64,000 nucleotides of DNA. Source: an uncultured Methanoregulaceae archaeon. Lineage in GTDB: Archaea; Halobacteriota; Methanomicrobia; Methanomicrobiales; Methanospirillaceae. Positions within the stretch are counted from its first letter, which is position 1; every line of letters starts with the position of its first letter. Below are positions 46,398 to 64,000 of the stretch, in pieces. The notes beneath the pieces are model-generated. The model worked only from the letters and a program-made list of their open reading frames with translations. It was not told where the DNA came from and made no database searches. The translations under genes and the position numbers were made by a program. The stretch covers positions 128,001 to 192,000 of the forward strand of contig CAWJAX010000002.1 in assembly GCA_963841015.1 (NCBI GenBank), given 5' to 3'.

Positions 46398-46494
46398 ATT
46401 CGTCCGGTCCTATAATGGCTGTATATCCACGAAAACGGGTAAAAGGGTATCGATTATAACTGTTCCAGGCTCTCGTGCTGATATGCCGGTCTCT

Positions 46495-47130: not shown

Positions 47131-47435
47131 GATGATATCACCAGTGAGTGCATGAGATAGAGCGATATATAAGGATTGGTTTTGCAAGAATCAGAACAGA
47201 CCGTTGAGATCGGGGTAGTGTAATCAGTTGATTACGAAGGACGCCTTTCAAGGAACATAAATGTTCCCTCCATTCCCCGCATTAAAACGCCCCGTTTGCT
47301 CTATACTTCTTCCAGCATCCTTTGTTTCCCGGAAATTCCTGGTTATAATAAAAGACCTTACTCCCGTATGTCCCATAGGAGTATGTCAAAGGGCCCCGCG
47401 ACAAGAAAACAAAAAACGAACAAGGAGAAAAAAAC

Positions 47436-47939
47436 ATGGCAGATTTTGTGCAGAATTCACAGACCAAAAATGCGGTTCGCATGCTTGCGAGCCCGATTGC
47501 AGACGTAACGGCGTTCAACTCGATTGTCCAGTCGGTCATCACCGACAACCCGTTTGCCTGTGTAGCCTATATGACCGCCGGGATAAACCACGACCCGGTA
47601 GAAAAGACCCGGGAAGCGTACACCGCACGGATCAACTACGAGGACGGGAATGCAAAGAACGTCGGTAACTGTTCCCACCGCTTCAACACACTCGCAGGGT
47701 TCAGCGCCGGGGTAACCGCGTTGCTGGCAGCCGCGGCAGTCACCACGGCACATGCCGGTACCGCAGTCCACGACCCGGCGGATGATGCATTCAGTGCAAC
47801 CCTCAGGTGCCACGATGCCAATGGCGAACTCTACCTGCTGAACTTCAGCCGTGACCGGGTTTCCCTCACGTCCTACTCGGACGAGGCCATCCGCACCGCG
47901 GTCGAGACCTGGGCGGACACCGTCCCGGCTCTTGCCTGA
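47436..47939 (+). CDS. Hypothetical protein, first gene of a compact cluster
   Basis: AAGGAG RBS, clean 167-aa ORF, downstream hairpin. Confidence 0.8.
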   Translation: MADFVQNSQTKNAVRMLASPIADVTAFNSIVQSVITDNPFACVAYMTAGINHDPVEKTREAYTARINYEDGNAKNVGNCSHRFNTLAGFSAGVTALLAAAAVTTAHAGTAVHDPADDAFSATLRCHDANGELYLLNFSRDRVSLTSYSDEAIRTAVETWADTVPALA

Positions 47940-47961
47940 GCATACCAGAGACGACACGACC

Positions 47962-48000
47962 CTGAGGAGAGGAGACCCGGTCTACCGTCTCCTCTCTTTT
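47962..48000 (+). terminator. Stem-loop followed by a T-run
   Basis: GAGAGGAGAC...GTCTCCTCTC then TTTT. Confidence 0.5.
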
Positions 48001-48036
48001 GTGGTCCTCTCGTTTCGGTACCTGGAGAGGACCGTT

Positions 48037-48201
48037 ATGGAAACCGAAGTTGCGGGAATCATCCTGGGGGCAGTGCTGCCCCTCTACCCGATGTTGTTTG
48101 TCATCTACCAGAAGATTGGCAGATATGACGAGATTGTTGAGGAGTTCAAAAAACTCCGGGCCGAACACGATGCCCACCGGGAGAATTTTCATGGAAACTA
48201 A
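48037..48201 (+). CDS. Small single-TM protein
   Basis: METEVAGIILGAVLPLYPMLFVIYQKIG...; GGAGAGG RBS. Confidence 0.65.
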   Translation: METEVAGIILGAVLPLYPMLFVIYQKIGRYDEIVEEFKKLRAEHDAHRENFHGN

Positions 48202-48666
48202 GATCATATCCCCCGCCGTTGCGCAGGTTATCGGCATATTCCGGGGAAAAGACGGCGGGTTTGAACCGCTCGGTCGCGATACACCGCTTACGGCCGATGA
48301 GGTAAGCCGTAACCCGATCTTCTATATCCTTGACCTGAACAGCGACACCTGCAGCGGGAACCTGATCATCGATGTGACCTACGATAACCTTTCACCCGTA
48401 CGGTTGCAGGACCTGCGGCGGGGGACCGATATCCCCCATGGGGTCCGGTTCTGGCCGGACTGGTTCGATATTCCACCCTATGAGGAGATGCATGACATTG
48501 ATGGCCGCCGGGTATATCCCCGGGCACCGGGTCTCCACACGGTGCAGATCCGGACCGCCGGCGGAAGTTTGCGCAGATGGGACGGGCACGGGACTTCAGC
48601 CCGGAGAATGGCGGGTACACCAGCCCGGTGTTTGAGCTATGGATTGGAGGGAGATACGGTGTTTGA
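48191..48666 (+). CDS. Hypothetical protein, frameshift near 48558
   Basis: METKIISPAV...VRFWPDWF...; the corrected frame ends GGYTSPVFELWIGGRYGV*. Confidence 0.65.
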
Positions 48667-48889
48667 GAACGAGGTGCTGACACGGTGTGCAATCGCCGGG
48701 ACGGGGATGGTGCTCGGGCTTATTGGTGTGCTGGCACATCTTCCCCTTCTTTTTCTCATCCTGCCGGTTGCAGTGGTCTTCCTGGGCATCGTTGCAGACC
48801 CCGAAGAGACCCATGCCGTGTGGTACGGGATGCTGAATACGCTCGGCATCTTTGATGTGTCTGCACTCTCACGCTGCGGAGAAGGGTGA
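48659..48889 (+). CDS. Small two-TM protein
   Basis: GTG start after GGAGG; hydrophobic. Confidence 0.55.
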   Translation: MFENEVLTRCAIAGTGMVLGLIGVLAHLPLLFLILPVAVVFLGIVADPEETHAVWYGMLNTLGIFDVSALSRCGEG

Positions 48890-49082
48890 ACTATATCCAG
48901 AAAAAGCATTACTTCTGGTTCGGCGAGGTGGGGATGGCGGGTGTACTGGCAGGAAGTTTGCGGTCCCGCTGGGGCTCTTCTTTGCAGGGCAGACCGAGAT
49001 CACGCTGGCATTCATCAGTGCTGCAGTGCTGTTCCTGCCGCTCTTCGTGTTCCTGCCCAAGGCTGATCCAGCGGAGCGATGA
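48886..49082 (+). CDS. Small two-TM protein, T-run frameshift near 48958
   Basis: GTGA overlap; ...AVPLGLFFAGQTEITLAFISAAVLFLPLFVFLPK. Confidence 0.5.
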
Positions 49083-49247
49083 AGGCGGATACGGATGCTG
49101 GTGATCGAGGCGTTCGGCAAGAACGGGCAGGTAAAAAAGGTGTTCTGGGCCGTGTTCACCGCCTTGGCCGGGCTGGTAGTGGCACGGATCATCGACCCGG
49201 GGACCGCCCGCCAGGTTGTATTGGCTCTTACGGGGATAGGCGTGTAA
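49079..49247 (+). CDS. Small membrane protein (start uncertain)
   Basis: MLVIEAFGKNGQVKKVFWAVFTALAGLVVARIIDPGTARQVVLALTGIGV*. Confidence 0.55.
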
Positions 49248-49425
49248 GCGACAACCGGACAGTTCTTGTCCTGGTGGGGGATATGCGGATCTCCGGTTCA
49301 TGCCTGCCCATAGCGGTACACGCATCCTGGCAGACCCGCCATTCCCCGCACGGGATTACGGAAGATCAGTCGCACGCCCAAAAAAAAGACAAAATTACCG
49401 GGATACCCGCGGTGCTTTCAAACGC

Positions 49426-49638
49426 TCACTTCTTTTCCAGTGCCTGCCGGATCATCTTTAAGGTCTCAACTTTGTGCTTCTTGTACCCGATCTTGAACTC
49501 TTTGTGCATGATCCGCTCATCGAGCTTGCGCATTACTATTGCCTTTCTTGTTGCTTCGTCGAGGGATTCCCACGCGGCCATCTCAGCCCATTTGGCCTGA
49601 CCCATATGCATTTCAATTTTTGAATCTTCCATTATCAT
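49426..49638 (-). CDS. Small helical hypothetical protein
   Basis: AAGGAG RBS; charged coiled-coil pattern. Confidence 0.65.
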   Translation of the reverse strand: MIMEDSKIEMHMGQAKWAEMAAWESLDEATRKAIVMRKLDERIMHKEFKIGYKKHKVETLKMIRQALEKK

Positions 49639-50082
49639 TTCGTGTAACTCCTTTTGGTGTATGGTGTTCTCATGGTTCTTTTTAAAATTCGGGTATTTCC
49701 GACGATGAAATGAAGAGGTATAGATATGTCTGACTCCTCCACGCTGACTCTTGACAAAATGGGGTGTACCAACTCATCGCATCACTCCAGAGAACTAGAT
49801 TATCTCTTCAGCAACGAACTCATATCAACATTACCAGGTGATGCAGATTTTGTTACAAAATCTGAAACGTATAACCAATGAAGTGCCTCAGACCGCGGAA
49901 ACACGCTGGTAGTGGGATCTGAGAATTATTATCGTATCCTTATCGGGCAATACCGGATCGGGTGCCCGGATACCGGAGCAGTTTTATAGCATAATGGGAT
50001 ATTACCAGAAAGGATTTCCCGATCATACGATATCCAAAAAAATAAGGAGTGGGGTATTATCCGGATAGTCACAGGAATCCCG

Positions 50083-50674
50083 GTGGGGGATACGCAGAAA
50101 CAACGGGATCTGATAGCCAGTCAGTGGGTGAAACTCAAAGAACCCAAAAATATGATGACCGCCATTCTCGCATCAGTTCCCTTCATGGCACTCAATACCA
50201 CGATCACCTTGTTGATCGCAGGTATGTTCGTGCCAGTCTCTCCCGAATACTGTGGAATAGACGGAACCACATTCTCGTTTCAGACAGACCTGCTTGCACC
50301 TGTTGCTTGGCGTAGTGGGAATACTTGTTGCCCACGAACTGATTCATGTACTCTGTATACCGGATTTTATCCGTTCAGATACTACCTGTATCGGAATAAC
50401 GTTTGGTGGCGGATTTGTGTATACGGAAGAACCCTTGACCCGGACACGCTTTATCATCATCAGCTTCGCACCGTTTATCGCCATTTCCCTCATCCTGCCC
50501 TTTATTCTGGGCATGCTGCATCTTCTCTCTCCGTTAATACTTGGTCTCATGGTATTGAACTCCCTGGGATCTTCAGTGGATATGTTGATCGCACTGCTTG
50601 TGCTTCTGCAGGTCCCCTCGAGAGCACATCTTGTTGCAAACGGCAGGGATACGTATTGGAAACCTGATGGATGA
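50083..50674 (+). CDS. DUF3267 membrane metalloprotease-like protein, frameshift near 50295
   Basis: HELIH zinc motif, TRFIIISFAPF, N..GSS.D. Confidence 0.75.
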
Positions 50675-50946
50675 GGTGGGAGTCGGGCTCGTTAAAAAGA
50701 GCGGTCAGGAAAAAATTTCGATACCCTCCTTACTGCCAATGAAGTAAATCTGAGGGCCTGAAAGATCCCTCTTATAATATCCATTCTTTAAGATTTCTGT
50801 CTGGAAATGAACTACTCATCCTTGTTTGACGATAATCAGCACGGATATTGACCATGTTCAGGTTTCGTTTTGTGACCTATGGTTCAAAAACGTAACAGAT
50901 ACGCTCATATGGTTCTGCTTTGAACCTTGAAGACGGAACACCTCAC

Positions 50947-51063
50947 ATGTACGCAATCGAAGCACAGAATCTCCGCAAGTCATTTGGGGACGTCATAGCG
51001 GTAGATGACGTCAGTATTGCCATTGAGGAAGGCGGTATCTTCGGGTTCCTCGGCCCGAACGGA
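50947..51063 (+). pseudogene. Truncated ABC ATPase N-terminus
   Basis: MYAIEAQNLRKSFGDVIAVDDVSIAIEEGGIFGFLGPNG, breaking off within Walker A. Confidence 0.8.
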
Positions 51064-51170
51064 GAATTTTTAAGAGCTCGATGCCGTTGATCTCCGGCAT
51101 ATCATAATCCACAATAATTGCATCAAAGGATTTTTCAAGCAGAATCTTAAGTGCTTCGGTTGCTGATTGA
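51060..51170 (-). pseudogene. Receiver-domain fragment
   Basis: SATEALKILLEKSFDAIIVDYDMPEINGIELLKIL. Confidence 0.7.
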
Positions 51171-51493
51171 CCTGAAACATATGCGGAAATTGGCGAAACG
51201 CCGACAGACCACGAATATGAGATTGCCTATAGAAAATACGAGTAGGTTTTCATGATTAAGCAGAGTAATCTGCTCTGTTTCTTATTCATTGTTGAATATC
51301 CAATGAGACAATTTTCAGTTTCCATCATTTTTAAAAAATCAGTATGGATGAAATGGAAACCTTTCTTTGTTGTGTTCTTCAACAGGGTCCTGTTGCATTA
51401 ACTGGACGAGCTTGCCGATTACTACACCGTTTCCTGCACCGTCTGCGATATCTGCTCTTGAAAGGGAATTAACGAATTTTTGAAAAGTAAATA

Positions 51494-52252
51494 TTACTGG
51501 TAGAAAGGAGGTTTGTAAGTCTCCTCACCATTGGCGTTACCGATAGTTCTCCCCGTGTAATACCGGAAGGACTGTACCATGTTCTCATAGGTGGCCTGGC
51601 TAAGTGTACCGTCGGGGGTCATCGTGTAAATCATTACCGGAATATACCCCTTCTCATTTGCCGAGGCCTTGTTACCGACCAAGATTACGGTCTTGGCCGG
51701 AGTTCCGGAATAGGGATCGCTCTTGGCATCAAACCGGACATAGGTGATCCCGTTATAGGTGACGGTAGATTCATCGAATACTGCAACGGAACTACGGATG
51801 ATATTCCGGATATTCTGGTCCACGCTGAGTGAAGTGGAGTAAGAGAAGATGGTCAGTGAGTCGGCAAGCTCGGTATAGTTGCCACTGTTGTCGTTAATGG
51901 TCCCGTTGGCCCCGCCAGTGGCCGGGTTGAAGACAGTTGTTTTATAGAGGATGTTGTTTTCGGACGTCGTCGCACGGATGGTTGTGCCAGCATACCCGTC
52001 CGGTGCGGAGATAGTAAAGAGAAGAGGTGTATCCTTGATGCTCTTCGGAAGGGGAACGGCGGGTGCTGTCGTTGTCGGCAGGGGAGTCATCGCTGTTGGT
52101 ACTGGAGTTGAAACAGTGGTCAGGCGTTCGGTTGGGACAGTCGTCGGCACCGGTGAAGGGGTCGGCTGGGGCTGGATGGTCTGGGTGCACCCGGCAATAT
52201 ACATTACTGCTATGACCACCAGAAAAAGGATAAAAATTGTTTTGTTTTTCAT
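51494..52252 (-). CDS. Lipoprotein with P/T-rich linker
   Basis: IAGCT lipobox. Confidence 0.8.
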   Translation of the reverse strand: MKNKTIFILFLVVIAVMYIAGCTQTIQPQPTPSPVPTTVPTERLTTVSTPVPTAMTPLPTTTAPAVPLPKSIKDTPLLFTISAPDGYAGTTIRATTSENNILYKTTVFNPATGGANGTINDNSGNYTELADSLTIFSYSTSLSVDQNIRNIIRSSVAVFDESTVTYNGITYVRFDAKSDPYSGTPAKTVILVGNKASANEKGYIPVMIYTMTPDGTLSQATYENMVQSFRYYTGRTIGNANGEETYKPPFYQ

Positions 52253-52515
52253 AGTAACACCATAATAGGCTGTGTTGAATACATGGGGGAAATCTGATAA
52301 TTCTTTTGATAGTTTTCAATTTTTGGAAACAGATGGGATAAACCGGGATAATCAGGCTGTTGTACATTTTTCCGTTGATGAAGCGTATGAACCAAACCCG
52401 CATCATCACCCTGCCACAATCAGACTGACAAAAAAAAGTATTGCGGGTACAGCCATTTCTTTGTTTGTTTATCTGACAATCCCAACATAATTTGTTTTCC
52501 AGGTACAGGAACGTC

Positions 52516-52890
52516 TCACTTCTGGACTTTAACTAAATCTCTCTTAATCGCCATTTTTTTGATCTTTTCACTGATATTTTCGCTGTTTTCCATGCGATGC
52601 CATTCCTCGTTGCTCATTCCCATAAAAAAATCGCATTCCGAACATTTTATCCAGGCTTCGTAATGATCCGGGAATTCTGCGTGAAGTGCCGGTTTTCCAC
52701 ACTGAGGGCATACTAGTGTTTTCCCCTTGATCGAAACCGTAACCTTGGTCTCACGGTCATGGGGTTCGATCTTTCCCTCACCGGGAACTGGCTTTGGGTC
52801 ACGGGTTTTTGCATCCGCTGATCCGTGGTGGGGCGCTACGCTGCCGTCACCGCGGGCTATCCTTTCCTGTACTTTTAATTTGTCCGTCAT
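52516..52890 (-). CDS. Zinc-ribbon hypothetical protein
   Basis: CPQCG...CSEC. Confidence 0.65.
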   Translation of the reverse strand: MTDKLKVQERIARGDGSVAPHHGSADAKTRDPKPVPGEGKIEPHDRETKVTVSIKGKTLVCPQCGKPALHAEFPDHYEAWIKCSECDFFMGMSNEEWHRMENSENISEKIKKMAIKRDLVKVQK

Positions 52891-53122
52891 AGTTGTTCAC
52901 TGGTTAAGCATCCGCTTTGCCAGCACCCAGGCAAGATGTGCCTTGAAGTCATCTGGGTGCATGGTTCCGGTCTGGCGGGTTCTGCCATGGGGTTTATCCG
53001 TAACGACCTCGTTTTCCCATTATCACCGGCCGGTAATAGAAATCATCAATCCCCTCGTGAGTTCTCAGCAATAAAGCAGGTGTTAAAACGGGTAGTTTAC
53101 AAAAAAAAGAAATTCCTGAACC

Positions 53123-53488
53123 TCACCGGTTTTCCGGGGAAAGTATACTGCCAATGTATTTCTGTATATAGCCGATGACAAATGGTGCCACAAGTGGTAT
53201 AATCATCGCCTGCATTTCATGCCCGAGACCTGGATGGCTTCGTTCCTCTTTTTGTCCAGCACAAGCACCAGGTGATGTCATCCGTGTAATAATTACATAA
53301 GCGGCTATTCCTCCAATAATCGCAGTAGCCGCTGCTGCAAACGGGTGCCTCCTGATCGTCCCGCCAACAGATCCGAGAGCACGGGAAGGTGCCTGGACAA
53401 CAGACTCTTTCAGCCGGCCGTAGGATTCGGCGATTAATGCTTCTGTTACAAGGAGGTCCTCTTCGGTAATCGATCTACGGTTTTTCAT
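53123..53488 (-). CDS. YqjK/DUF3618-like protein
   Basis: RRHPFAAAATAIIGG TM; third gene of a YqjD-E-K-like operon. Confidence 0.55.
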   Translation of the reverse strand: MKNRRSITEEDLLVTEALIAESYGRLKESVVQAPSRALGSVGGTIRRHPFAAAATAIIGGIAAYVIITRMTSPGACAGQKEERSHPGLGHEMQAMIIPLVAPFVIGYIQKYIGSILSPENR

Positions 53489-53849
53489 TTTTTATCATCT
53501 CCGTTGCAAGAGGTGTCTTCAGAACGATTTTTTGTGTCAGGAGCACGTACGCCATAATTCCGCCAATAATAAAGATAGCAATTCCCGTGATCAGCAGGGC
53601 AGCCCAGAAAGGTAATACCGTTGCAATAAGGAAGATTATACCCATCCAGACAAAAAGTGTGCCAGCTGCCAGTAAGGTAACAATGATCGAAAGGATCATG
53701 ATCCTTGAGATGAGCAGATTAAAAGGCTCAAATACATAGTACTGCAAAAACAAATCCGTTTTCTGCCGTATATAAAGATCGATGAATTTGAACGTCGTGG
53801 CAAACTCCGACTCTATTGAAGGTTCTTCGGTACTGGCAGCCTCATCCAT
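53475..53849 (-). CDS. YqjE-like (phage holin family) membrane protein
   Basis: Two TMs with LPFWAALLITG; operon context. Confidence 0.65.
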   Translation of the reverse strand: MDEAASTEEPSIESEFATTFKFIDLYIRQKTDLFLQYYVFEPFNLLISRIMILSIIVTLLAAGTLFVWMGIIFLIATVLPFWAALLITGIAIFIIGGIMAYVLLTQKIVLKTPLATEMIKNEKP

Positions 53850-53860
53850 GGGATCCCTCG

Positions 53861-54193
53861 TTAGTCGCGTGCTTTGAAGAGAAGCATGCCAATGATAGCT
53901 CCGATACCCGCTGCGATCAGGACCGAGGGAATTGGATGATCGATGATGATATGTTCTACAGGTTCAACCTTTTTATGATACTCAACTTCGATTTTTTTAA
54001 ACTCGATACCTGCTTCGTCCCTGAACCGGTTCATCCGGGACTCGACATCCGCCAGGATATTCCTGACATCATCGGTTTGTTCAGATACGTTAACATTCCG
54101 CAGCTTGCGGGCAGCCTGTTCAAGTGCATCAGCTGTTTGAACTTTCATCTGGTCTGTCTTTACAATCGTTGAATCAATCATTTTTTCCGCCAT
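53861..54193 (-). CDS. DUF883 (ElaB/YqjD-like) tail-anchored protein
   Basis: Helical N-terminus plus HPIPSVLIAAGIGAIIGMLL. Confidence 0.7.
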   Translation of the reverse strand: MAEKMIDSTIVKTDQMKVQTADALEQAARKLRNVNVSEQTDDVRNILADVESRMNRFRDEAGIEFKKIEVEYHKKVEPVEHIIIDHPIPSVLIAAGIGAIIGMLLFKARD

Positions 54194-54453
54194 TATCATG
54201 CAACTCCTTTGCCTGATAAGGTTTTTTTTAAATATCGTGATATAATAATTTTTTATACCCTTATCAGAGCAGGCTATCATAGTGTAAAACAATATATAAA
54301 TCTCCCTTGAAATTGCAAATTTTGAAACAATCCCTGGAATTTCCCCAGTTTCGAGTACAGGAAAAATATCGCTTGATCGTGTACAAAGAACCTGTAAGAA
54401 TCACTTCCCGTACACGTTATCGGGCTGCTGACTGGTCACCTCAATGGTAACAA

Positions 54454-55479
54454 TCAACCTTGGGAAGTCCCGGTCTTGGCATATTCTGCCTCTTCAGCGA
54501 GTATTTTATACCCGGTCACCGCGAGCGCGACGAGCACCGGGCCAATAATAAAACCCACAATACCCATAAACGGGACTCCGGCAAAGATGCCGATCATCAT
54601 CATGACCGGGGGTATTGCAACCCGTTTTCCCATCATCACCGGGCGGTAATAGAAATCAATCCATCCACTCAGAAGCGGATATCCCACAACAAGGGTGATA
54701 ACCGCACTCCAGGTTTGGCCGAGGCTCAGAAAATAGAAGGTGAAGAAGAGGATCACGATCTGGGCACCGATGAGCGGAATCAGCATGCCAAGACCGATCA
54801 ATGTTGCGAACAGGAAGGGATCATCAACACCCAGAAGGAAGAAGAACGGGATTGCAAGGAGAAATGCTATCAATGCAGCAGAAATCTGGACAATGATAAG
54901 AGCATAGATGGTATTGGCGGAAATTTCTGACATCCTGTCAACAGCCTGGCGAAGTTTTGGGGAAAGGGTACACGTCAGGGTGTCCCATATCTGCTCCCCG
55001 TAATACAACAACATGGAAAGTGAGAGAAAAAATATGATGATGGAAATAAGTGACTGCATGACATTGCCGGACAACGACAGGAGCGATTGCAGCAGTAACT
55101 GGATAAGTGTTTCAGGCATATTGGATACCTGTTTTTCCGTGAAGGTTGGCAGAAAAGCTGAAAAACCGGTATTTTTTAATCCGCTTACCATTGAGGTAAC
55201 CATGGTCCCGATATGGTCGATGCTGCCATACAATATGTTTGACGAGATCGATAGCACGAGCAGGATTACGAGGAGAACCCAGAGGGTAATGAAGGTAACG
55301 GATACTGATGGTTTTACCATTCCCGAAAGCCATTTATGAAATGACATAAGGGCGACAGCGATGGCAGCTGACCATATCAATACGGTCATGAGCGGCCAGA
55401 AAACCAGGATACAGACAATATAAATCGCAGCGATAAGGAGAACCACCTGCTTGTTTTCGCTTACCCTGATACGGTCCAT
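54454..55479 (-). CDS. AI-2E family transporter
   Basis: IPLIG, D.Y.RP..G, GIFAG...MGIVGFIIGP. Confidence 0.9.
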   Translation of the reverse strand: MDRIRVSENKQVVLLIAAIYIVCILVFWPLMTVLIWSAAIAVALMSFHKWLSGMVKPSVSVTFITLWVLLVILLVLSISSNILYGSIDHIGTMVTSMVSGLKNTGFSAFLPTFTEKQVSNMPETLIQLLLQSLLSLSGNVMQSLISIIIFFLSLSMLLYYGEQIWDTLTCTLSPKLRQAVDRMSEISANTIYALIIVQISAALIAFLLAIPFFFLLGVDDPFLFATLIGLGMLIPLIGAQIVILFFTFYFLSLGQTWSAVITLVVGYPLLSGWIDFYYRPVMMGKRVAIPPVMMMIGIFAGVPFMGIVGFIIGPVLVALAVTGYKILAEEAEYAKTGTSQG

Positions 55480-55610
55480 AAATATCAAATCTTTGGCATG
55501 AATTTTTCCTTGCTGCTCTCGAAACAGGGCAATTTCTTTATTGATAGTAACGTTAAATTTTCATTAAAATTTTATTTTTTTACCTGGCAAATTGGAACGC
55601 GAAAAAATAT

Positions 55611-55772
55611 TTAAAATGCCCCAAACAGGAAGGTAATAATCGCGATAATTATGAAGATAATTACCAGGATCTTCGCTATTTCCATAGAAAACCCGGCAAC
55701 CCCTCTGGCACCTAATATGTAGAACACTAATGCCAAAACCAGGAATACTACGGCGAGCCATATTAAATCCAT
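55611..55772 (-). CDS. DUF1328 (YtjA/UPF0391) small membrane protein (not in ORF track)
   Basis: [53 protein letters not shown]. Confidence 0.85.
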
Positions 55773-55784
55773 ACTCTTAACCTC

Positions 55785-56009
55785 CTACTTCTTCTTCAAA
55801 TCTGATCCGGCCTTGTGTACCGCAATTTTTGCGTCAGAAACCGCTTTGTGGACACCCATCTTTGCATCATCTGATACATTCTGTGCATCCTCTCCGGCAC
55901 CCTTCAGGGCATTATGTACGACTACCGATGCATCATCATATGCCGTATGTGCTGCCACGTTGGCGTCATCAGCGGCTTTGCTGGCTTTTACTTTTAGATT
56001 GTCCGTCAA
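55785..56009 (-). CDS. LEA-like protein with 11-mer repeats
   Basis: TTG start after GGGAG; KAADDANVAAH/TAYDDASVVVH/NVSDDAKMGVH/KAVSDAKIAVH. Confidence 0.7.
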   Translation of the reverse strand: MTDNLKVKASKAADDANVAAHTAYDDASVVVHNALKGAGEDAQNVSDDAKMGVHKAVSDAKIAVHKAGSDLKKK

Positions 56010-56289
56010 TTCGTTTTCAACTCCCTTCCCTGATATGATTTTCTTCAATACATTATCATAAAATTTTTTTATCCATATCAGAGTATGCCCTTTTTTAATA
56101 GGATAGTATATACTTCTAACCTCTTTTTGCAAAATCTGAAACAATCGGGAATTTCCCGTGCTGATTACAGAAAAAATGGGTATTCTGCTGATTTTTGATC
56201 TTTCAAATTTTATAATAAAAAGGGGGTGATCACTCATCTATTTATGTTGTTGGCGGTAATTTCAAGCACCTTATACAAGAAGGAATCAA

Positions 56290-56502
56290 TCATTTCTTTT
56301 TCTTCGATTTTGATCCTGACCCGTGTGCAGCGCTTTTAGGAGCAGAAACAACTTTGTGTTTTACCTCATCTGATGCTTTCGGTACTTTCGTTCCGGGATG
56401 TTCCAACTGGTCAAGCGAAGCGGTGACATCATCATGCATTTTAAGGGTGGCTTTTTCTGATGCTTTCTCTGCTTTCATGGCTTTGCTGTCTTTATCAGTC
56501 AT
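56290..56502 (-). CDS. Small hydrophilic (hydrophilin-like) protein
   Basis: K/S/A-rich; leader and RBS similar to the 56009 gene. Confidence 0.65.
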   Translation of the reverse strand: MTDKDSKAMKAEKASEKATLKMHDDVTASLDQLEHPGTKVPKASDEVKHKVVSAPKSAAHGSGSKSKKKK

Positions 56503-56983
56503 AATGTCTTCAACTCCTTTCCCTGACAGGTATCAATGGAATTATTTTATATCCAATAATCATTCTACCGACACCAGGGCAGACTGGAATAAGGTTGAAT
56601 GAATATAAAATTCTTATTTGTTTTTCCAAAATCTGAAACGAACAAGAATTTTTCGTGTTGAGTGGCTGAGAACGCGAAAAAGAACATATACAATTCCGCT
56701 GGTCATCATTCGTAGGTATCGGCCATATCTCTTACATCGTACTTGTAAACCGAGCTGACTGAAACATCCAAAATACCTTAAAAATACATTTCATTTTCAA
56801 TTTTTGTAATATCAAATAAGTTTTATATGCAAGCTCATCGTGTAGTGTCATACTCTTGTGTGGTTATTTGATCAGGTGAAATTTTCGGATAATCCGCTAT
56901 CCCATAAAAACAATTTCACCTGGGAAAAAAGAACTGCATTTGCGAGAATGATGGGCAATCTCAGGAAAAACTTGGTGATTTAC

Positions 56984-57661
56984 ATGGATGATTTAACTTC
57001 ACGAGATCAGGAAAAAGCACGGGAAAAGGACCTGAAAGCCGAACAGGACCGGCAGCGGGATGAGCAAAAAGCCCGGGAACAGGCTGCAGAAAAAGGACGG
57101 AAAGAGGAACAGGACCGGCAGAAGGAACGTGAACAGGCGACAGAGAAGGGACGGAAACAAGGACTGGAACAGGAACGGGCACGGCAAAAGGCAAAGGGAG
57201 GTTCGGGGGGGATCATCATCGCCCTCCTTGTTGTTATTGTTATCGTCTTCGCTGCTATTGCCTGGTTCTCACTGAGCGAGACGGTTACCGATGTAACCCC
57301 AGGAACCCCGTTACCGTTCACGACAAACTATGCGGTTTCATTTCCTGAAGGCCAGACAACTACCCTCGGCAATTCCCGCATCAACGTAATGTGGTTCGAA
57401 AACGAGCTCATTACGGATATTGATGGCGCCAAACAGAAACTGGTGGTAGGTGAGGAAAGAGTTTTATCTGAACGGCGAGGGGTAACAAAAGCACTTGGCG
57501 TAATCACGCTTATGGATATAAACTATGTAATTAACCTGAAATATAAAGGTGAACGGGACGGCCGGGCGTACTTCGATATGGCAGTCCACACCTCAAAACA
57601 GGTACCGGATATCCTCCTCAAACGGATGCTTCCCCCCGAAATAGATGCACGATCCCCGTGA
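56984..57661 (+). CDS. Single-TM protein with charged N-terminal repeats
   Basis: EQDRQ..REQA.EKGRK repeats, then a TM. Confidence 0.75.
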   Translation: MDDLTSRDQEKAREKDLKAEQDRQRDEQKAREQAAEKGRKEEQDRQKEREQATEKGRKQGLEQERARQKAKGGSGGIIIALLVVIVIVFAAIAWFSLSETVTDVTPGTPLPFTTNYAVSFPEGQTTTLGNSRINVMWFENELITDIDGAKQKLVVGEERVLSERRGVTKALGVITLMDINYVINLKYKGERDGRAYFDMAVHTSKQVPDILLKRMLPPEIDARSP

Positions 57662-57674
57662 GCGGAGGGTTTGC

Positions 57675-58364
57675 ATGAACATCAGGTATACAATCACATT
57701 TTTTGGAGTTCTGTGTATTGCACTCCTTTTCTCGGGATGCACCAATACATCCCCGCAAGTCCCGGCACCGACTCCGGTTCCCACTACCGCTGCAATGGTG
57801 ACACTCTCGCCAACCCCGACCGCAGTCCCCTTTCCGAATGCGCTGGCCCTGAATGAGTACGCCACCTTCGGGAGTGGGAATATGATCGGTAAGGCAACAA
57901 TCTACGGGTATGACATAAAACCAGGCTATAACTGGACGGCACCGTCATGGAACAGCCCCGGCGAGCAGGCAGCTGCATCCCAGCCGCTTGACATCCAGCG
58001 TGGTTATAACAGGGAAAAGCCTCAGGAAGGCAATACCTTCCTTTTCGTGCATGTCCGTGTCCTGAATACAGGGAAAAATGCCGTGTATGCTCCCTCAGCA
58101 AAACAGTTTGTGGTGAACAATAACGGGACGCTCTACAATTATTCGCCAGTCTATGGTTCCGATGTGATTATTGATAAAGTTCCGGGGACACAGTACGATT
58201 ACCAGATCGGGCGGGGCGGAACCGTCGGCTACATCCAACCCGGAGAAAGTAATGCTGCAGATGGCTATCTCATCTACGAAATACCGGCGACATTCTCTCC
58301 CAATACGACATACGTGGTAAGTAATCTCGACTATCAGAATAAGGCAGTATGGAAACTTGGATGA
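57675..58364 (+). CDS. DUF4352-like lipoprotein
   Basis: FSGCT lipobox; FLFVHVRVLNTG, IQPGE..DGYLIYEIP. Confidence 0.75.
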   Translation: MNIRYTITFFGVLCIALLFSGCTNTSPQVPAPTPVPTTAAMVTLSPTPTAVPFPNALALNEYATFGSGNMIGKATIYGYDIKPGYNWTAPSWNSPGEQAAASQPLDIQRGYNREKPQEGNTFLFVHVRVLNTGKNAVYAPSAKQFVVNNNGTLYNYSPVYGSDVIIDKVPGTQYDYQIGRGGTVGYIQPGESNAADGYLIYEIPATFSPNTTYVVSNLDYQNKAVWKLG

Positions 58365-58737
58365 TTGAGGATGTTCCTCTATTTCTTTCAGTCACCAGCC
58401 AGGGGGGTAGACGCGAAGATGTATCCGGTCCCGGACCTCCCGTTCGGCCAGTATCCCATCTCCTGACGCGAAGGCACTGCAAAAATCTTATCCCCTGGCT
58501 TCTTACCAGATCAAGCACCGTAGAGCTTTGATCCCGATACATGGAAACATAAGGCCCAGATCTTCACCCTCATGCTTGATGTCCACATCGGTGCGAGTGT
58601 CCCTGCTAATGCCAACCGAACGCAAACATGAATGTCGCTGTGAACATTCAAGTTTTTTGAACCATCTCTACAGAGTCCAATTCAGCGCAAATTATAAAAC
58701 CAAAGGTGATGAACAGACACTTTAACGGAAGTAAATT

Positions 58738-58902
58738 ATGGACTGGCTCTTAACGCTTGGTATACTGTTTATCATTATTGCCGTTATATTTGTAATTCTT
58801 GGATTTATCGGGAGAATAGCATGGACAATTGCAAAGTGGATTATTATCATCTTGATTATCCTTGCGTTAATTTCCCTCATCATGGGAAATCCCCTCTTTT
58901 AA
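58738..58902 (+). CDS. DUF1328-like small membrane protein (not in ORF track)
   Basis: MDWLLTLGILFIIIAVIFVILGFIGRIAWTIAKWIIIILIILALISLIMGNPLF*. Confidence 0.7.
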   Translation: MDWLLTLGILFIIIAVIFVILGFIGRIAWTIAKWIIIILIILALISLIMGNPLF

Positions 58903-58983
58903 CGAAGCGCTCGGTGAAATATTCCGTGCCACATACGAAAATACCCCCACCCTGTTAAATGCAAACAGGTGCAACTATGCAAT

Positions 58984-59174
58984 ATGTCAAAAATTAACCT
59001 GCAACAAACTTTGAAGAAACCGTTTTCAGAATGGACAGATGAAGAGAAATTATTTTTTTTCATGATTTATTAGGTCATCACCATAGGCCGCCACCAGGAT
59101 ATAGCGAGACGATGCCGGATAAGGTGATCTATTCTCCCGATGAGAACCTTTTGTATCGGTTGAGTAAAGATTAA
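58984..59174 (+). CDS. Small hypothetical protein (T-run frameshift near 59055)
   Basis: MSKINLQQTLKKPFSEWTDEEKLFF, then HDLLGHHHRPPPGY...RLSKD* in the shifted frame. Confidence 0.4.
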
Positions 59175-59583
59175 TTTCTGCTCAATGGCATTCAAAATAA
59201 TCCGCGATCCTTGAGATCTGCCAACAGAACGCGAATATGAGGGTCCATGACCATGTATGATGGTTTAATGATAAGGAGGTAGTGAGTCCATCATCCACCA
59301 TGGGCGATAATTCTCACAACCCCTCACACGTTTTTTTAATTGTTGGCCAAGTGTCATCCTGCCGTATAGCCAACATTTGTCTCCAGTCTTATAATTACAC
59401 TCTTTACATGAGATCAACCTGAACAGAGCCATACCTAAGGAATTAAAAGCACATGTATAATTAATTCACAAACCGCTGCGGGTTCGACAAAAGAACCCTT
59501 TGATTATATCCTCACTGCCACGAGAAGAAAACCAATAAGTTCAAAATAATAAAAATCATACAAACCTTTTGTGGTGGTCATGT

Positions 59584-59808
59584 ATGCCCTGGGTCTCATG
59601 CAAAATATGTAACGGTAAAGGACAAATCTCTGACCCGAAGCAACCAGGATGGGAAGCAAAAGAATTCGGACAAAAATATAGAGAATGTCCAAATCGTGAT
59701 TGCCTAAGTGGAAAAATTTACATTAGCAAATACACGTCCGATTTTCATAATCAGTATGTGCCATCAGATCAGGAAATAGCTGCCCAAAAAACGAGAATCC
59801 AACAATAA
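59584..59808 (+). CDS. Small zinc-finger protein
   Basis: CKICNGKG...CPNRDCLSG. Confidence 0.6.
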   Translation: MPWVSCKICNGKGQISDPKQPGWEAKEFGQKYRECPNRDCLSGKIYISKYTSDFHNQYVPSDQEIAAQKTRIQQ

Positions 59809-60097
59809 AGTAAAATACAATTTTATCGGTGAGGATATAACCATCCCTTCAGTATATGAGATCTGCCAACCGAACGTGAATATAAACGTCTTTGCAACAC
59901 TTTAAAAGAACAGGGCGGAAACACTCCGCCCATTATAGGTGTTTCCGGGTTCCTTCAAGGCATTGGAGAGCTCGTCCTTGGGAGTTGGGTCGCAGAATGA
60001 TAGTGTGGAGTCATCGCTCTGATGACGTATCGAAAAGAAAATACATAAAAACATATCTCTTCTTAACAAATCTGGAACGCCAATATGAAGATTAAAA

Positions 60098-60286
60098 TTA
60101 ATATTTTTTTATTCCTGTTTTTATTCGAAAAAGAACGTCAGCAGTTAATACAGGAATATTATGTTCAGATTCCATGTGTTCAATGAGTTGTCTTATGATC
60201 TCTCGTTCAGTTGTTCCCTTTACTTCGAAAGAACAATCCATGCCCAGATCTCCGCATTTAATTGAAGCCAATGGAATGCGTTCCAT
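60098..60286 (-). CDS. DUF1059 metal-binding protein
   Basis: KCGDLGMDCSF...TE.E....EH...EH. Confidence 0.85.
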   Translation of the reverse strand: MERIPLASIKCGDLGMDCSFEVKGTTEREIIRQLIEHMESEHNIPVLTADVLFRIKTGIKKY

Positions 60287-60499
60287 TTCATCTGATCCTG
60301 GTCGTCCTTCCGATAACAACTGCATTCCTGATCTCCCGTTTTGTTCTGAATCTCCATAAGTAAGAACACCCTATCTTTTTCCTATAAAAGAGGAAATGTT
60401 TAAGATTATTCCCAAGAAACAGATTTTGACACAAATTTTGAAATAATCAGAGAATATACCCCGCCCTCAGTATCTGCCAACAGAAAGCGGATTAGAGAC

Positions 60500-60775
60500 T
60501 CACAAGACGCGTTCTGTTGAAAATGAACATCCTTTAGGAAGAGGAATATCCCCGTCGGGATATGTCGCGCACCGCCGAGGTCTCTTCTCATAAATTCCAC
60601 AGGTGTTATCTGATTGAAGATGCGGGCAGATATTTTGAATCCATAAAATTTCCGTCACGGGATTATATTCCCACCCCCTGCATGCACAATATTCAATATC
60701 ATCAGGAGTTGCATTTGCAAGGTGAAGTACGACCCATCGGCAGCACTCTCCACAGTGTCGGCATTCCGGTGGCAT
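60500..60775 (-). CDS. YkgJ family cysteine-cluster protein
   Basis: CRHCGECC...CPHL...CGIYEKRPRRCATYP. Confidence 0.88.
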   Translation of the reverse strand: MPPECRHCGECCRWVVLHLANATPDDIEYCACRGWEYNPVTEILWIQNICPHLQSDNTCGIYEKRPRRCATYPDGDIPLPKGCSFSTERVL

Positions 60776-61012
60776 GGTAATTGTAAAAAATAGTATTTCG
60801 ATAATTAATGAAAATTTGCACGAATTGAAATCTGACAACAGAACACGAATATGACCATTTTATAATTTCTCATTCTGAATGACGATTACTACGGTACACT
60901 TTTTCATTACGCATAGTATATTTTTATAGATCCCTTAATTTTGAAAAATAAGGATAATTAGAGGGTATTTAGATATCTTCCAGAGGTAAAAGGTTATTAT
61001 TTTTATTGAATT

Positions 61013-61360
61013 CTAATCCTCCAAAAAGTCTGAGAGATGATATTTTTTTGTACTTAAATTAATAGTAACAGATTTTTCATTTTTTTTCGCATCACCGATA
61101 ATTTTTTCGATTCTTGGCATTAATTTTTTATAGACTTTCTCTTCTAATTCAGCCTTTTTTTTATTTTTGTCATCTATCCCTTTATCAAACGATATTTTGT
61201 AAATGGTTCCTAAAGTACCATAAGGATTCTTTACATCAATCAATATTTCTCCTTTATAGTCATTATCTGTAAGCCCTGTCTCTACTATACGAGGAGTTAG
61301 GAGAGTTAATTCATCGATATCAATCCAACTTTTCCCATCAGCCGTTTTTATCTTTGACAT
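61013..61360 (-). CDS. AT-rich hypothetical protein
   Basis: Clean 115-aa ORF between repeat copies. Confidence 0.65.
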   Translation of the reverse strand: MSKIKTADGKSWIDIDELTLLTPRIVETGLTDNDYKGEILIDVKNPYGTLGTIYKISFDKGIDDKNKKKAELEEKVYKKLMPRIEKIIGDAKKNEKSVTINLSTKKYHLSDFLED

Positions 61361-61582
61361 AAACGAGAATATAGTATATTCAGATAATAAAACATTCTTT
61401 TAAAAAAAGGGATATAACCCCTCGAGCCCCTGCTAACCGCTAACAGATCACGAATATGCGAGTTACATGAGAAGCAGGGTGTGGGAGACCCGATGAAAGT
61501 TGTGGAATATATGGATCCTCACAATGGTTATTAAATAATTTATTAATAAATTCTGGTCTATGTTTTACGCAAAGTGCTGGTC

Positions 61583-62005
61583 TTAGCTTTTATTGAGCAT
61601 TTCCCGTGCGAACTTTTTTGCGTTATCCAGGTCTTCGGTGCCGGGATGACCGCGGTTCACGAATAAAAATTTCCCTTTGCAGTGATAGCTTCCCATGACA
61701 GTGGCACCCTTCTGCTGCACCATATCCGCCATCACGGAGATCAGTTTTTGCCCTCCTGCAAGACTTGCCGCGGTGCCGAACAAGGCGACCTTGCGTCCCG
61801 TAAGGTTTCCGGACCCGATGAATTTCAGCATCGCCTCCCCTGGTTTACCACCATACGTACCACTGCCAAGGAACAGGAGCTGTGCGTCGTTTTGGGGGGT
61901 TGCCGCCACATCCATTGCCGTAATACCCACCTCTCCGGCGATGGCATCTGCCACTTTCCTGGTATTTCCACCCCGGGAATCAACCAGTACAGAAACTTCA
62001 GTCAT
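61583..62005 (-). CDS. Flavodoxin family protein
   Basis: SRGGNTRKVA, LGSGTYG, VALFGT, GHP..EDL..A..F. Confidence 0.9.
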   Translation of the reverse strand: MTEVSVLVDSRGGNTRKVADAIAGEVGITAMDVAATPQNDAQLLFLGSGTYGGKPGEAMLKFIGSGNLTGRKVALFGTAASLAGGQKLISVMADMVQQKGATVMGSYHCKGKFLFVNRGHPGTEDLDNAKKFAREMLNKS

Positions 62006-62114
62006 ATTTTCAAATGTATGATTATCTGCCTTAAAAATGATCGTGGTAACCCCATGGGGTTTTATTTTTTATGAAGTTCACCGGTCATACACTTCACGAG
62101 CTGAAGGACGATTA

Positions 62115-62685
62115 TTATTTTTTGTTGATCTCTTCCCTGAACCGGTGAAAGAGATCGTACATTGCCTGCCGGATTTCATTGCCAACATCCCCCCAGGATG
62201 TGCAGACCGGGGATGCCTGAGAGTCTGATTCTGTATCCCGGGGTACATCATCTCGTACTGTTTCCGGGTAAAATATCCGTACATACCCGGTAATTACGAC
62301 GATGAAAAAGACAAGGAGATACAAGATAGTCTTAACATTCAAAAACATGGCCGACATTCCGGGACCGTACCCACAGATCAAAGAAATCCAGCAGGATGAA
62401 GATCAGGCTGACGACCAGCAAGCTTCCCAGCCCGGAAATGAGCGGTCCCGGAATATTGAAGGGATATTGAAACGAGAAGAAAATATCGGCCACCATAAAC
62501 ACTATCCCCATCGTAATGATCAGGGTGAGGTTATCCATCAATAATTCGACAAATCCAAGCAGGAATGCATTGTGGAACCAGGATGCGAGATAGCCGAGTA
62601 TCACAAGGAGAACCAGAAATACGATAATACCGGTCAGGTCTGATATGACCGCACACCACGGGGATCTGTTGTTAGAGAATTTCAT
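62115..62685 (-). CDS. Membrane protein, +1 frameshift near 62371
   Basis: ORFs 62332 and 62115 join into a four-TM protein; extra C in gtaccc. Confidence 0.7.
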
Positions 62686-62731
62686 ACCGTACACCTGTTC
62701 TTTCTTATATCCGGGTAATTACCGGTAAAAA

Positions 62732-63544
62732 TCATATCCTTGTGATCAACTCACTCCGGGAAAAGATCCGGATTCCTGTCCAGATCAGGACGGCATCAAT
62801 GGCAAAGAACACCAGACCGACAAGGACTGCCACCAAAGGTGAAAGGAATAGCAGTCCCATACTCTGGGCAACCATCAGGAAAATAATCAGGATGACGAGT
62901 ATGCTGGATGCCTGGTAGGCTTCCATGAAAGTACTGACTCGTGTCGAGATGATCACCGTTGCCGAGACCCCGAGCAGGGCAACCGCGGGAACGACAAAGA
63001 TCATGAGGGCCAGCCAGCTCTCTGTCGGGAACCAGATCCTGCCCATGACCGGGTAGCCGGCAATGTTTGTCACAAGTGCAAAGATCAGGAAATTCACCCA
63101 GGTATACACAACAGCCGGAATGAATGAGGCAAAAAGTTTGCCGAGGAATAACTCTGCATCGGTTGCGGGTGTGTAGAGGAGGGCTTCCAGAGTCTTTCGC
63201 TCTTTTTCCCCGACAAATGCCTCTGCTGCTATCATGCACGAGAGGATCAGCGGCAGTATGAGGAAGAGCGGTGCGATGAGGTACCCGAGGATGAGGACAA
63301 TCGGGAATTGCGCGGGAGAGAGTGTTCCCATCTGTTCAAGAAAAGCCGCAGGAATGCTGGCAGACAATTCATCGAAAGAAGGCTGAGTGCTTCCCGTTGT
63401 GACGACAGCGATCTGGGTGATAAGAAGCGGAAGACCAATGGCAAATATCACGGAAAGCACGATAGCGCCGGAGACAGCAATACGGTTTTTTGCTACCTCG
63501 AAGAGATCCTTTTCCGCAATTGCCCGGATAAACTGCCAGTTCAC
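62732..63544 (-). CDS. ABC transporter permease
   Basis: FVGEKERKTLEALLYTP.TD.ELFLGK. Confidence 0.9.
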   Translation of the reverse strand: MNWQFIRAIAEKDLFEVAKNRIAVSGAIVLSVIFAIGLPLLITQIAVVTTGSTQPSFDELSASIPAAFLEQMGTLSPAQFPIVLILGYLIAPLFLILPLILSCMIAAEAFVGEKERKTLEALLYTPATDAELFLGKLFASFIPAVVYTWVNFLIFALVTNIAGYPVMGRIWFPTESWLALMIFVVPAVALLGVSATVIISTRVSTFMEAYQASSILVILIIFLMVAQSMGLLFLSPLVAVLVGLVFFAIDAVLIWTGIRIFSRSELITRI

Positions 63545-64000
63545 AGGACACTCCCTCCCTGGTCCTGGACGGCAAAATAAATCTCCTCAAGCGAGTAATC
63601 CCTCGGCGTGATTCGGAAGATCTCACCGCCATTGCTTACCACGATCCGGATCACTGCCGGTACAAGATCTTTTTGTGCAACCCTGATGGTTACCGTGGTA
63701 TCAGCCTGACTGTCAACAATTACCCCTTCCATCTCCCGTATCTTACCGATGACAGAAGACGGCGGGGGGGTGAGAAATTCCATTTCCACGGGCACTGCTT
63801 TCCAGAGTCGCTCCGTAAGATCATGGATACTTCCCTGGGCGAGAATCTTTCCTTTATTGATCATCGCCACGCGGGAGCAGAGGTGCTGGGCCTGGTTGAG
63901 ATTGTGCGTACACAAAAAAATTGTTTTTCCATTGTCCGCTGCGAGCTCCCGGATAATCCCCTCCACCTGACGTGATGCTTCCGGGTCAAGACCCGAGGTA
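63541..64000 (-). CDS. ABC ATP-binding protein, 3' part
   Basis: TSGLDPEA, LCTHNL..A..LC.RV, SLEEIY. Confidence 0.88.
   Translation of the reverse strand, partial: TSGLDPEASRQVEGIIRELAADNGKTIFLCTHNLNQAQHLCSRVAMINKGKILAQGSIHDLTERLWKAVPVEMEFLTPPPSSVIGKIREMEGVIVDSQADTTVTIRVAQKDLVPAVIRIVVSNGGEIFRITPRDYSLEEIYFAVQDQGGSVL

Follow-up and report, generated by a model that had tools for sequence, protein, structure and literature searches.

Small gene cassettes punctuated by a conserved, non-palindromic 29-nt site in a Methanoregulaceae archaeon

Integrons are recognized by their attC sites—imperfect inverted repeats (R''-L''...L'-R') of 55–140 nt that fold as single-stranded DNA (ssDNA) hairpins, conserve structure over sequence and carry the core consensus RYYYAAC—and by the integrase IntI, a tyrosine recombinase with an IntI-specific extra domain. 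Here, we describe a locus within a 64,000-nt stretch of DNA from an uncultured Methanoregulaceae archaeon (the window, on whose first letter all unprefixed coordinates are based), in which a conserved site of about 29 nt, repeated in direct orientation, separates small AT-rich units of 0.2–0.6 kb. As in integrons and in clusters of attC sites lacking integron-integrases (CALINs), small, mostly ORFan single-gene cassettes lie between directly oriented sites, array content varies among close strains, cassettes recur in other arrays, and lone sites and small clusters are scattered with no integrase adjacent. Unlike integrons, the locus has an asymmetric conserved site of 25–29 nt, no IntI and no attI/Pc platform; its genes lie in either orientation, so that they would need promoters of their own, and the system is confined to one archaeal genus. 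According to the main text of Ghaly et al. (2022; PMC9668308), CALINs are the commonest integron form in archaeal metagenome-assembled genomes, and that main text does not mention Methanoregula or Methanomicrobia.

Three further classes of described systems resemble the locus in part. The pdif modules of Acinetobacter plasmids and the integrative mobile elements exploiting Xer (IMEX), such as CTX-phi, are Xer-dependent; they too are small modules bounded by ~28-nt sites and moved by a housekeeping recombinase encoded elsewhere, and XerA is likewise the only classical recombinase of the present genome. The orientation of pdif sites alternates, whereas all sites here are direct, have no 11-6-11 dyad and bear no likeness to the genome's own dif-like site. 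Staphylococcal cassette chromosomes of the SCCmec type are serine-recombinase cassette arrays at direct repeats. With these and with tRNA-anchored cassette arrays, the locus shares chains of cassettes that each end in a ~30-nt direct repeat, a recombinase that is often not adjacent, and the exchange of cassettes between strains at the repeats; it differs in that its genome has no serine recombinase, none in the genus tracks the motif, there is no tRNA or gene anchor, and the repeat mimics the end of a non-coding repeat (the B element, described below) and not a tRNA. Tandem integrative elements (tRNA islands and elements with archaeal SSV- or pTN3-type integrases; PMC8371274) are also flanked, unit by unit, by attachment direct repeats that are the 3' end of a resident element, but the units here measure only 0.2–0.6 kb, have no integrase and share one site among dozens of different units, and the motif has no match in viral contigs. 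A literature search, which did not extend to supplementary tables, returned no description of a site with the 17-nt core and none that joins Methanoregula with integrons or gene cassettes; the system appears to be previously undescribed.

An earlier note on this DNA had reported seven direct copies of a 25-nt repeat, and sequence reading together with a repeat finder recovers all of them on the + strand (Table 1), at spacings of 609, 645, 209, 402, 358 and 605 nt; one of the seven, at 60070, is a decayed 19-nt copy with a 6-nt internal deletion. A literal search with the 25-mer (up to 3 mismatches) found 3 copies, against 0 in 100 shuffles. The weight-matrix scan that the note had proposed was run with a matrix drawn from 105 sites, all from genomes other than the window's own, and gave seven + strand sites of 18–47 bits in the 64 kb (51199, 58610, 59219, 59864, 60475, 60833 and 61438), no site on the - strand, and none of at least 10 bits in 5 shuffled windows. 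Two extra decayed copies, at about 58996–59020 and 59516–59537, are suggested by comparison with other genomes and contigs; therefore, each interval holds one gene, and not one or two as had been thought.

By information content, the conserved element spans positions -3 to +26 around a 22-nt core, roughly ATC-TGCCAACAGAACGCGAATATGA-ACGT, and the ~29-nt consensus, (A)TC-TGCCAAC-AGAACGCG-AATATGA-(ACGT), is non-palindromic. What is conserved over these 22–29 nt is sequence and not structure, the opposite of attC: an inverted partner within 150 nt on either side was found at 8 of 56 sites, against 10/56 and 10/56 for two control words, and 14 folds (the seven window sites on both strands; z -1.86 to +0.88) yielded no shared ssDNA hairpin. 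Runs of A and of T are enriched on both sides of the site and not downstream alone, and a terminator module was rejected on this ground. A known RNA family was likewise rejected, as Rfam searches of window 56000–64000 (E up to 1) gave only two chance-level matches. Clustered regularly interspaced short palindromic repeats (CRISPR) combine 24–48-nt repeats with 25–70-nt spacers; the gene-holding spacings of 209–645 nt and the lack of a relevant Rfam match set the locus apart from such arrays, as the note had already recognized.

The clearest evidence that units come and go at the site is found in other genomes (genomes, contigs and loci carry handles of our own, and G000 is the window's own genome, 2.28 Mb in 5 contigs and 94% complete). 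The closest relative, G063 (91–94% identity), has the same left flank and array order but is without window positions 58637–59863 (four genes or units) and 60486–60841 (the YkgJ cassette), five cassettes in sum, and both junctions fall within the repeat. Each junction is a hybrid site: the first joins the left context of site 1 in G000 to the right half of site 3 and what lies downstream of it, and the second joins the left context of site 4 to the right half of site 5. Interval contents are not syntenic between these two genomes and their breakpoints lie in the repeat, the reverse of what the note had named as refuting its proposal; this supports a gene-capture array with gain and loss between strains. 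In G063, the whole 7-kb block that corresponds to the window from 53122 to site 6 (G063:C1; L067 2778–9882) is flanked by two direct sites; the block occupies another chromosomal position, by the counterpart of G000:C2:126.1–126.5 kb, one of its breakpoints comes right after site 6, and the flavodoxin/ABC flank lies 56 kb away from it, inverted.

More distant genomes and metagenome contigs add further rearrangements. The 115-aa unit is preceded in G041:C19 by a site with the left context of site 2. Upstream of a DUF373 gene, at an orthologous position, the site-bearing inserts of G008 and G066 differ from each other and measure 1.5–1.8 kb, where G000 has 22–40 nt in what looks like a secondary deletion. 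In contigs from a freshwater metagenome (X2), cassettes are reordered and join exactly at the site (59240 to 58645, 60443 to 59223, 61407 to 59220 and 59001 to 60871): the ends of the 115-aa and DUF1059 cassettes each lead into the 55-aa cassette, and the end of site 2 leads into the 54-aa cassette, which follows a site-2-type junction in metagenome contigs. By our reasoning, assembly chimeras across the motif are unlikely, because the motif is shorter than the 31-letter words used to build the contigs. Of 921 ends of short BLAST homology blocks, 47 lay no more than 15 nt from a site, where our own estimate would predict about 1%. The reading of the locus as a cassette array is supported by three independent comparisons, namely with a close genome, with distant genomes and with metagenome contigs.

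The orientation of the sites is as uniform as that of the genes is not. Neighbouring sites less than 2 kb apart point in the same direction in 25/25 pairs at genome loci (up to 4 mismatches; 33/35 when 5 are allowed) and in 30/30 pairs from an independent set of 80 metagenome contigs, the co-oriented pairs being not all phylogenetically independent. By a crude call, the longest open reading frame (ORF) of 24 cassettes lies in the direction of the site in 12 and against it in 12; in the window, two cassette genes are on the + strand and four on the - strand. Uniform sites combined with randomly oriented genes fit the insertion of a circle into a site, and not a promoter, operator or terminator motif. 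The position of exchange was approached with 136 non-redundant sites, among which 17 pairs have just the upstream flank in common and 11 pairs just the downstream flank. At positions -3 to +6, agreement was 0.81 for a common upstream flank, 0.70 for a common downstream flank and 0.69 where neither was common; at positions +15 to +26, the corresponding values were 0.61, 0.86 and 0.58, and positions +7 to +14 did not discriminate among the classes. The left arm therefore varies together with the cassette before it and the right arm with the one after it, which points to exchange between about +7 and +14, in the central part where conservation is highest (about AGAACGCG / CAGAACGCG). In G063, the first junction lies between core positions 14 and 15 and agrees with this placement on the few positions that vary.

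The motif is restricted to records titled Methanoregula or close kin. A 20-nt pattern (up to 2 mismatches) has 12 copies in G000, against 1 for a reversed control pattern. In a survey of 108 genomes of the genus, 64 hold at least one copy and ten hold 7–21, while many complete genomes have zero and the single-contig genomes for the most part lack it; in other families of the order, only single 2-mismatch matches appear, the same level as the control. When eight 19-mers were matched exactly against 596 Gb of prokaryote genomes, 59 stretches came up. Records whose titles name Methanoregula or Methanoregulaceae account for 36 of them, counting in one 'Methanolinea sp.' and one 'Methanomicrobiales archaeon'; the other 23 are singletons in unrelated bacteria, where our own arithmetic predicts about 35 by chance. 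At least 120 metagenome contigs match the motif; viral contigs gave 0 exact matches, and a virus or plasmid source was set aside. In every genome examined, the arrays are housed in low-GC patches.

The window's cassettes are listed in Table 1. The array has a GC content of 27–43%, against 49% for its contig; the AT-rich genes in either orientation that the earlier note had described are indeed present. The cassettes look foreign because their GC content of 29–43% departs from the 49% of the genome and because the 115-aa protein has just 6 relatives, all metagenomic, among 5.8 billion proteins. Of the gene identities first suggested, DUF1059 and YkgJ are upheld by their Pfam matches; the DUF1328-like assignment of the 54-aa protein stays below threshold (15.9 bits against a cut-off of 27), and the two supposed zinc-finger proteins are Cys-rich and zinc-finger-like without belonging to a Pfam family. 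The stop codons said to lie near the sites do so in three minus-strand genes, at 3–24 nt from a site, and the distance from site to start codon varies from 46 to about 150 nt. Several units recur elsewhere: the 54-aa unit at 86–89% identity (G000:C5:110298, G041:C21 and G017:C21), the 55-aa unit at G000:C1:26625–26920, in G016:C67 and in G063:C2 (L070 4268–4567, with a site at each end), the DUF1059 unit as a paralogous copy at G000:C2:194004–194522, and the YkgJ unit in G066:C31 (85% identity), in whose place G063 has a hybrid site. The array is flanked on the left by a DUF4352 lipoprotein gene and on the right by a flavodoxin gene and an ABC transporter, and no tRNA gene lies within window 45000–64000.

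Table 1. Sites and cassettes of the array, with copies of the B element (window coordinates unless a contig of G000 is named)
Feature	Position	Strand	Remarks
Outlying site copy CGCCGACAGACCACGAATATGA	51196–51220	+	25.5 bits by weight matrix; 7.4 kb upstream of the array
Site 1 TAATGCCAACCGAACGCAAACATGA	58607–58631	+	homology to G063 left flank stops here
54-aa membrane protein cassette	58632–58995 (gene 58738–58902)	+	sub-threshold DUF1328 match; absent from G063 array
Decayed site AACCTGCAACAAAC..., tentative	58996–59020	+	metagenome contig fuses 59001 to 60871, just past site 5
Short unit, no convincing gene	59021–59215		sequence and ORF reading
Site 2	59216–59240	+	identical to family consensus ATCTGCCAACAGAACGCGAATATGA; 47.5 bits
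55-aa Cys-rich (zinc-finger-like) cassette	59241–59515 (gene 59265–59432)	-	no Pfam family
Decayed site TGCCACGAGAAGAAAACCAATA	59516–59537	+	homologous position intact in G016:C67 (L033) and G063:C2 (L070 4560)
74-aa Cys-rich cassette	59538–59860 (gene 59584–59808)	+	no Pfam family; absent from G063 array
Site 3 ATCTGCCAACCGAACGTGAATATAA	59861–59885	+	weight matrix, G063 comparison
Short unit, no clear gene, GC hairpin GGCGGAAACACTCCGCC	59886–60069		conserved in G063
Decayed site ATCTG-GAACGCCAATATGA	60070–60088	+	homologous spot decayed in G063 too
DUF1059 cassette	60089–60471 (gene 60098–60325)	-	PF06348, E 1.1e-16
Site 4 ATCTGCCAACAGAAAGCGGATTAGA	60472–60496	+	sole copy with an inverted half-copy, CGCGTTCTGTTG, about 60509–60520
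CxxCxxCC (YkgJ-type) cassette	60497–60829 (gene 60500–60775)	-	PF03692, E 6.9e-8; absent from G063
Site 5 ATCTGACAACAGAACACGAATATGA	60830–60854	+	literal search, weight matrix
115-aa ORFan cassette	60855–61434 (gene 61013–61360)	-	29% GC; no Pfam family
Site 6 AACCGCTAACAGATCACGAATATGC, last site	61435–61459	+	G063 synteny breaks immediately after
B element copies	C3:~499200–499470 (+), C5:~583290–583560 (-), C4:~17.1 kb, ~21.7 kb, ~37.0 kb (-)		also L040, L045, L035, L101

Two further repeats were noted around the array. A conserved stretch of ~45 nt (GAGATGCGGAAGACCCGATGAAAG-GTGTTT-like) follows the site at three unrelated loci (window 61460–61520, L067 9883–9935 and L041 ~235–280), and a ~500-nt tandem duplication (73–77% identity) occupies window 55974–56661, a patch of 34–40% GC between the 51199 site and the array.

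The locus is modular, gains, loses and reorders its units at the site from strain to strain, keeps its sites in one orientation and is restricted to one genus. We regard site-specific recombination by a putative trans-acting enzyme as the best-supported mechanism, with the chances of its being right or wrong evenly balanced. The locus would then be a chromosomal array of mobile single-gene cassettes, each bearing its own promoter and its gene in either orientation. Two neighbouring direct sites would recombine to release a circle holding one site, the circle could recombine with any chromosomal site, and re-insertion would again leave direct repeats; the recombination would be conservative and site-specific, with exchange in the central conserved part (about CAGAACGCG), and its enzyme would be encoded away from the array. 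Of this scheme, the excised circle, the conservative nature of the reaction and a dedicated enzyme are inferred.

A number of observations weigh against this mechanism. At C3:447.8–449.2 kb, a replacement between G000 and G063 (1.37 against 0.24 kb) has its borders ~180–230 nt off the nearest sites, and the two G063 deletions could equally be explained by slippage or homologous exchange across at least 13 nt of identity. Among the 80 metagenome contigs, none is circular (no identical ends). Tyrosine and serine recombinases normally require dyad symmetry in their targets, and this site has none. Neither the 3 kb around the sites at 119 loci nor the 80 metagenome contigs revealed a recurring family of recombinase-like ORFs, and motif abundance across the 108 genomes is not followed by the number of tyrosine recombinases, of serine recombinases or of IS110 and Y2 transposases. 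Finally, the B element hints at another, primary role for the motif sequence.

The search for an enzyme bears these points out in detail. The sole PF00589 protein of G000 is a XerA equivalog (NF040815, 283 bits; cut-off 220) and fails the integron-integrase model TIGR02249 (97.6 bits; cut-off 265). G000 has no serine recombinase (PF00239, 0 matches) and no Y1, Y2, IS110 or TnpB protein; DDE transposases and Cas1 were not searched for. The note had suggested looking for IntI- or Xer-like genes next to motif clusters, but clustering of the ORFs around sites returned only PAS kinases, an ABC ATPase, TPR proteins and cassette genes. Serine recombinases (PF00239) are present in 26 of the 108 genomes and in neither of the motif-rich G008 and G066; G066, with 21 sites, has three tyrosine recombinases and lacks both serine recombinases and IS110, G041 has one tyrosine recombinase for its 5 sites, and the motif-free G059 has seven tyrosine recombinases. 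Serine recombinases and extra tyrosine recombinases were therefore rejected as the enzyme, as neither tracks the motif. IS91/Y2 proteins (2/108 genomes, both motif-free) and IS110 (15/108 genomes, G000 and G066 not among them) were rejected as well, and a 16-kb segment between two B elements of G099 encodes an MFS transporter, an asparaginase, a serpin and an M13 peptidase but no integrase.

XerA is thus the only classical site-specific recombinase found in G000 and a candidate by elimination, with nothing that ties it to the site; an enzyme from an unrecognised family, or one encoded on an unbinned extrachromosomal element, is equally possible. Accordingly, of the recombinase that the earlier note had pictured acting in trans on simple sites, the trans-acting part stands as the best reading, whereas its assignment to the tyrosine recombinases does not, no enzyme being tied to the sites. 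Dif-type sites consist of two 11-nt inverted arms around a 6–8-nt spacer, 28–30 nt in all (PMC8371274); the cassette consensus has no Xer/dif-like dyad, no inverted partner and no 11-6-11 structure. Near xerA lies a dif-like 28-mer, AATCCAGATAA-CTCTAA-TTATATCCAAT, a candidate for the functional dif. Once reverse-complemented, its right arm matches exactly the left arm published for the P. abyssi dif (PMC2958812). This 28-mer has no real resemblance to the cassette site, with at most 6 of 8 positions in common in our own alignment (GGATATAA against GAATATGA). A second XerA half-site (GGATATAA) upstream of the cassette site was considered and dropped as too weak, since it is present at 9/111 sites against 1–5 in control windows.

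The surroundings of xerA are of some interest in their own right. The dif-like 28-mer is present there in 11 copies, one per 95 nt, about 560 nt downstream of the xerA equivalog, the only tyrosine recombinase gene; the array (G000:C2:370463–371440; L075 2585–3462) is a 190-nt tandem repeat of two alternating units, which is unusual beside xerA. Genus-wide, a serine recombinase of ~200 aa often lies 1–2 kb from xerA (e.g., G020:C1:688907–690763 and G107:C1:1404059–1405901); G000 has no serine recombinase near xerA and has the dif-like tandem repeat there instead.

The array may represent a novel, integron-independent form of gene capture in Methanoregula, in which single-gene cassettes with promoters of their own would be cut out and put in at a simple asymmetric 29-nt site, served either by a recombinase outside the IntI, serine, IS110 and HUH families or by XerA acting on a non-dif half-site, with the B element as a platform. 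We offer this fuller proposal tentatively, thinking it somewhat more apt to fail than to hold. The B element itself is a conserved non-coding repeat of ~300 nt, of which the cassette motif forms the 3' end (the last 25–30 nt), with a T-run and then an A-run behind it; 5 copies lie in G000, and G008, G016 and G099 have the element as well. At three of its loci it has no Rfam match, and it shows no convincing consensus fold (alifold energy about -6 kcal/mol, weak single-sequence z-scores) and no conserved ORF, stop codons breaking all frames in most copies. It may be a resident docking site ancestral to the cassette sites, or the motif sequence may have a separate primary function there.

The latter possibility leads to the strongest rival explanation, in which the motif is primarily a functional host element, a protein-binding sequence at the end of the B element that might be regulatory, an insulator or origin-like, and the turnover of units reflects homologous or microhomology recombination and slippage with no dedicated recombinase. 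We judge this unlikely, while keeping it as a sizeable rival because the motif also ends the B element. Consistent with a host function, the conserved motif closes the 3' end of a non-coding element that is multi-copy, long-lived and alike in position in G008, G016 and G099, and single motif copies adjoin housekeeping genes (PCNA, dapAB, TruD and DUF373); the absence of a co-occurring recombinase and of dyad symmetry, the identity flanking the G063 deletions and the replacement that lies off the sites would all be expected. Homologous exchange, however, leaves unexplained both the direct orientation of 55/55 neighbouring pairs and the origin of the sites on unrelated AT-rich ORFan cassettes. 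A promoter or terminator role for the cassette genes fits poorly with the uncoupled orientation of site and gene, with A- and T-runs on both sides and with the variable distance to the start codon, and the B element offers no conserved fold, ORF or Rfam family.

A second rival takes the motif as the sub-terminal end of non-autonomous B-element derivatives that resemble miniature inverted-repeat transposable elements (MITEs), their transposase being encoded elsewhere or lost, and the arrays as nested or tandem insertions. The termini of the B element are weakly inverted (GGGGAAAATAAGCCC ... GGGTCGTTTTTTCC, about 10/14 matching by our own reading), and B-like left context of variable length is found at the sites, ~60 nt of it at 12/141 sites by a crude pattern. 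The genome has other abundant MITE-like repeats, one with 74 copies, and a cassette of G089 holds a truncated ORF with an N-terminal Cys-rich stretch that resembles an IS1595-type transposase by eye only. Against these points, the cassettes are alike only in the ~29-nt site; no left end, terminal inverted repeat or target duplication surrounds them, and no inverted copies lie nearby. The transposase families covered in G000 (Y1, Y2, IS110 and TnpB, with DDE families not searched for) are absent from it, as is the truncated ORF of G089. We therefore consider transposition of this kind quite improbable.

Two related candidates were set aside. A composite or inverted-site transposon was rejected, as the inverted site pairs of G008, 8–9 kb apart, enclose asd, dapA, dapB, PCNA and primase genes, with TruD and RibD; so was a class C primary-site type comparable to attI, since the 12/141 sites that fit the crude pattern do not mark array ends. 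The MITE-like repeat with 74 BLAST copies in G000 is GC-rich, dispersed and ~210–230 nt long and contains GGGGGAGCCACAGCGGCGGGGGTGAA (e.g., C2:567497–567697 and C3:825075–825276; also L070 800–1035). A related family of ~290 nt has ~7–10 copies. G063 and G000 each have one such element in the 'empty' counterpart of a cassette locus.

The weakest explanation, an eroded classical integron or CALIN with attC decayed to half-sites, as the earlier note had offered, is barely credible: small ORFan cassettes with direct sites, the AAC triplet of TGCCAAC (like that of RYYYAAC) and the prevalence of CALINs among the archaeal genomes mentioned at the outset speak for it, but there is no attC-like inverted partner, inverse core or hairpin and no IntI, the genes are not co-oriented, sequence and not structure is conserved, and neither Methanoregula nor Methanomicrobia figures in the main text of that archaeal survey.

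To judge from the main text of Ghaly et al. (2022; PMC9668308), reports of integron-like gene capture in archaea have to date concerned only classical integrons with attC. In this widespread genus of peat and freshwater methanogens, populations behave in the same way, with interchangeable ORFan cassettes at hotspots, on a much simpler site and with no integron integrase. Whether a dedicated enzyme exists is testable in either direction, now that the site, its region of exchange, the set of cassettes and the strains that are polymorphic for them have been defined. If there is none, the locus would be a natural case of a short conserved element that organises a flexible island by homology alone. 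If there is one, site-specific recombination would gain a new system, compact in its 29-nt target and of significance for the uptake of accessory genes by methanogens and as a potential genetic tool for archaea.

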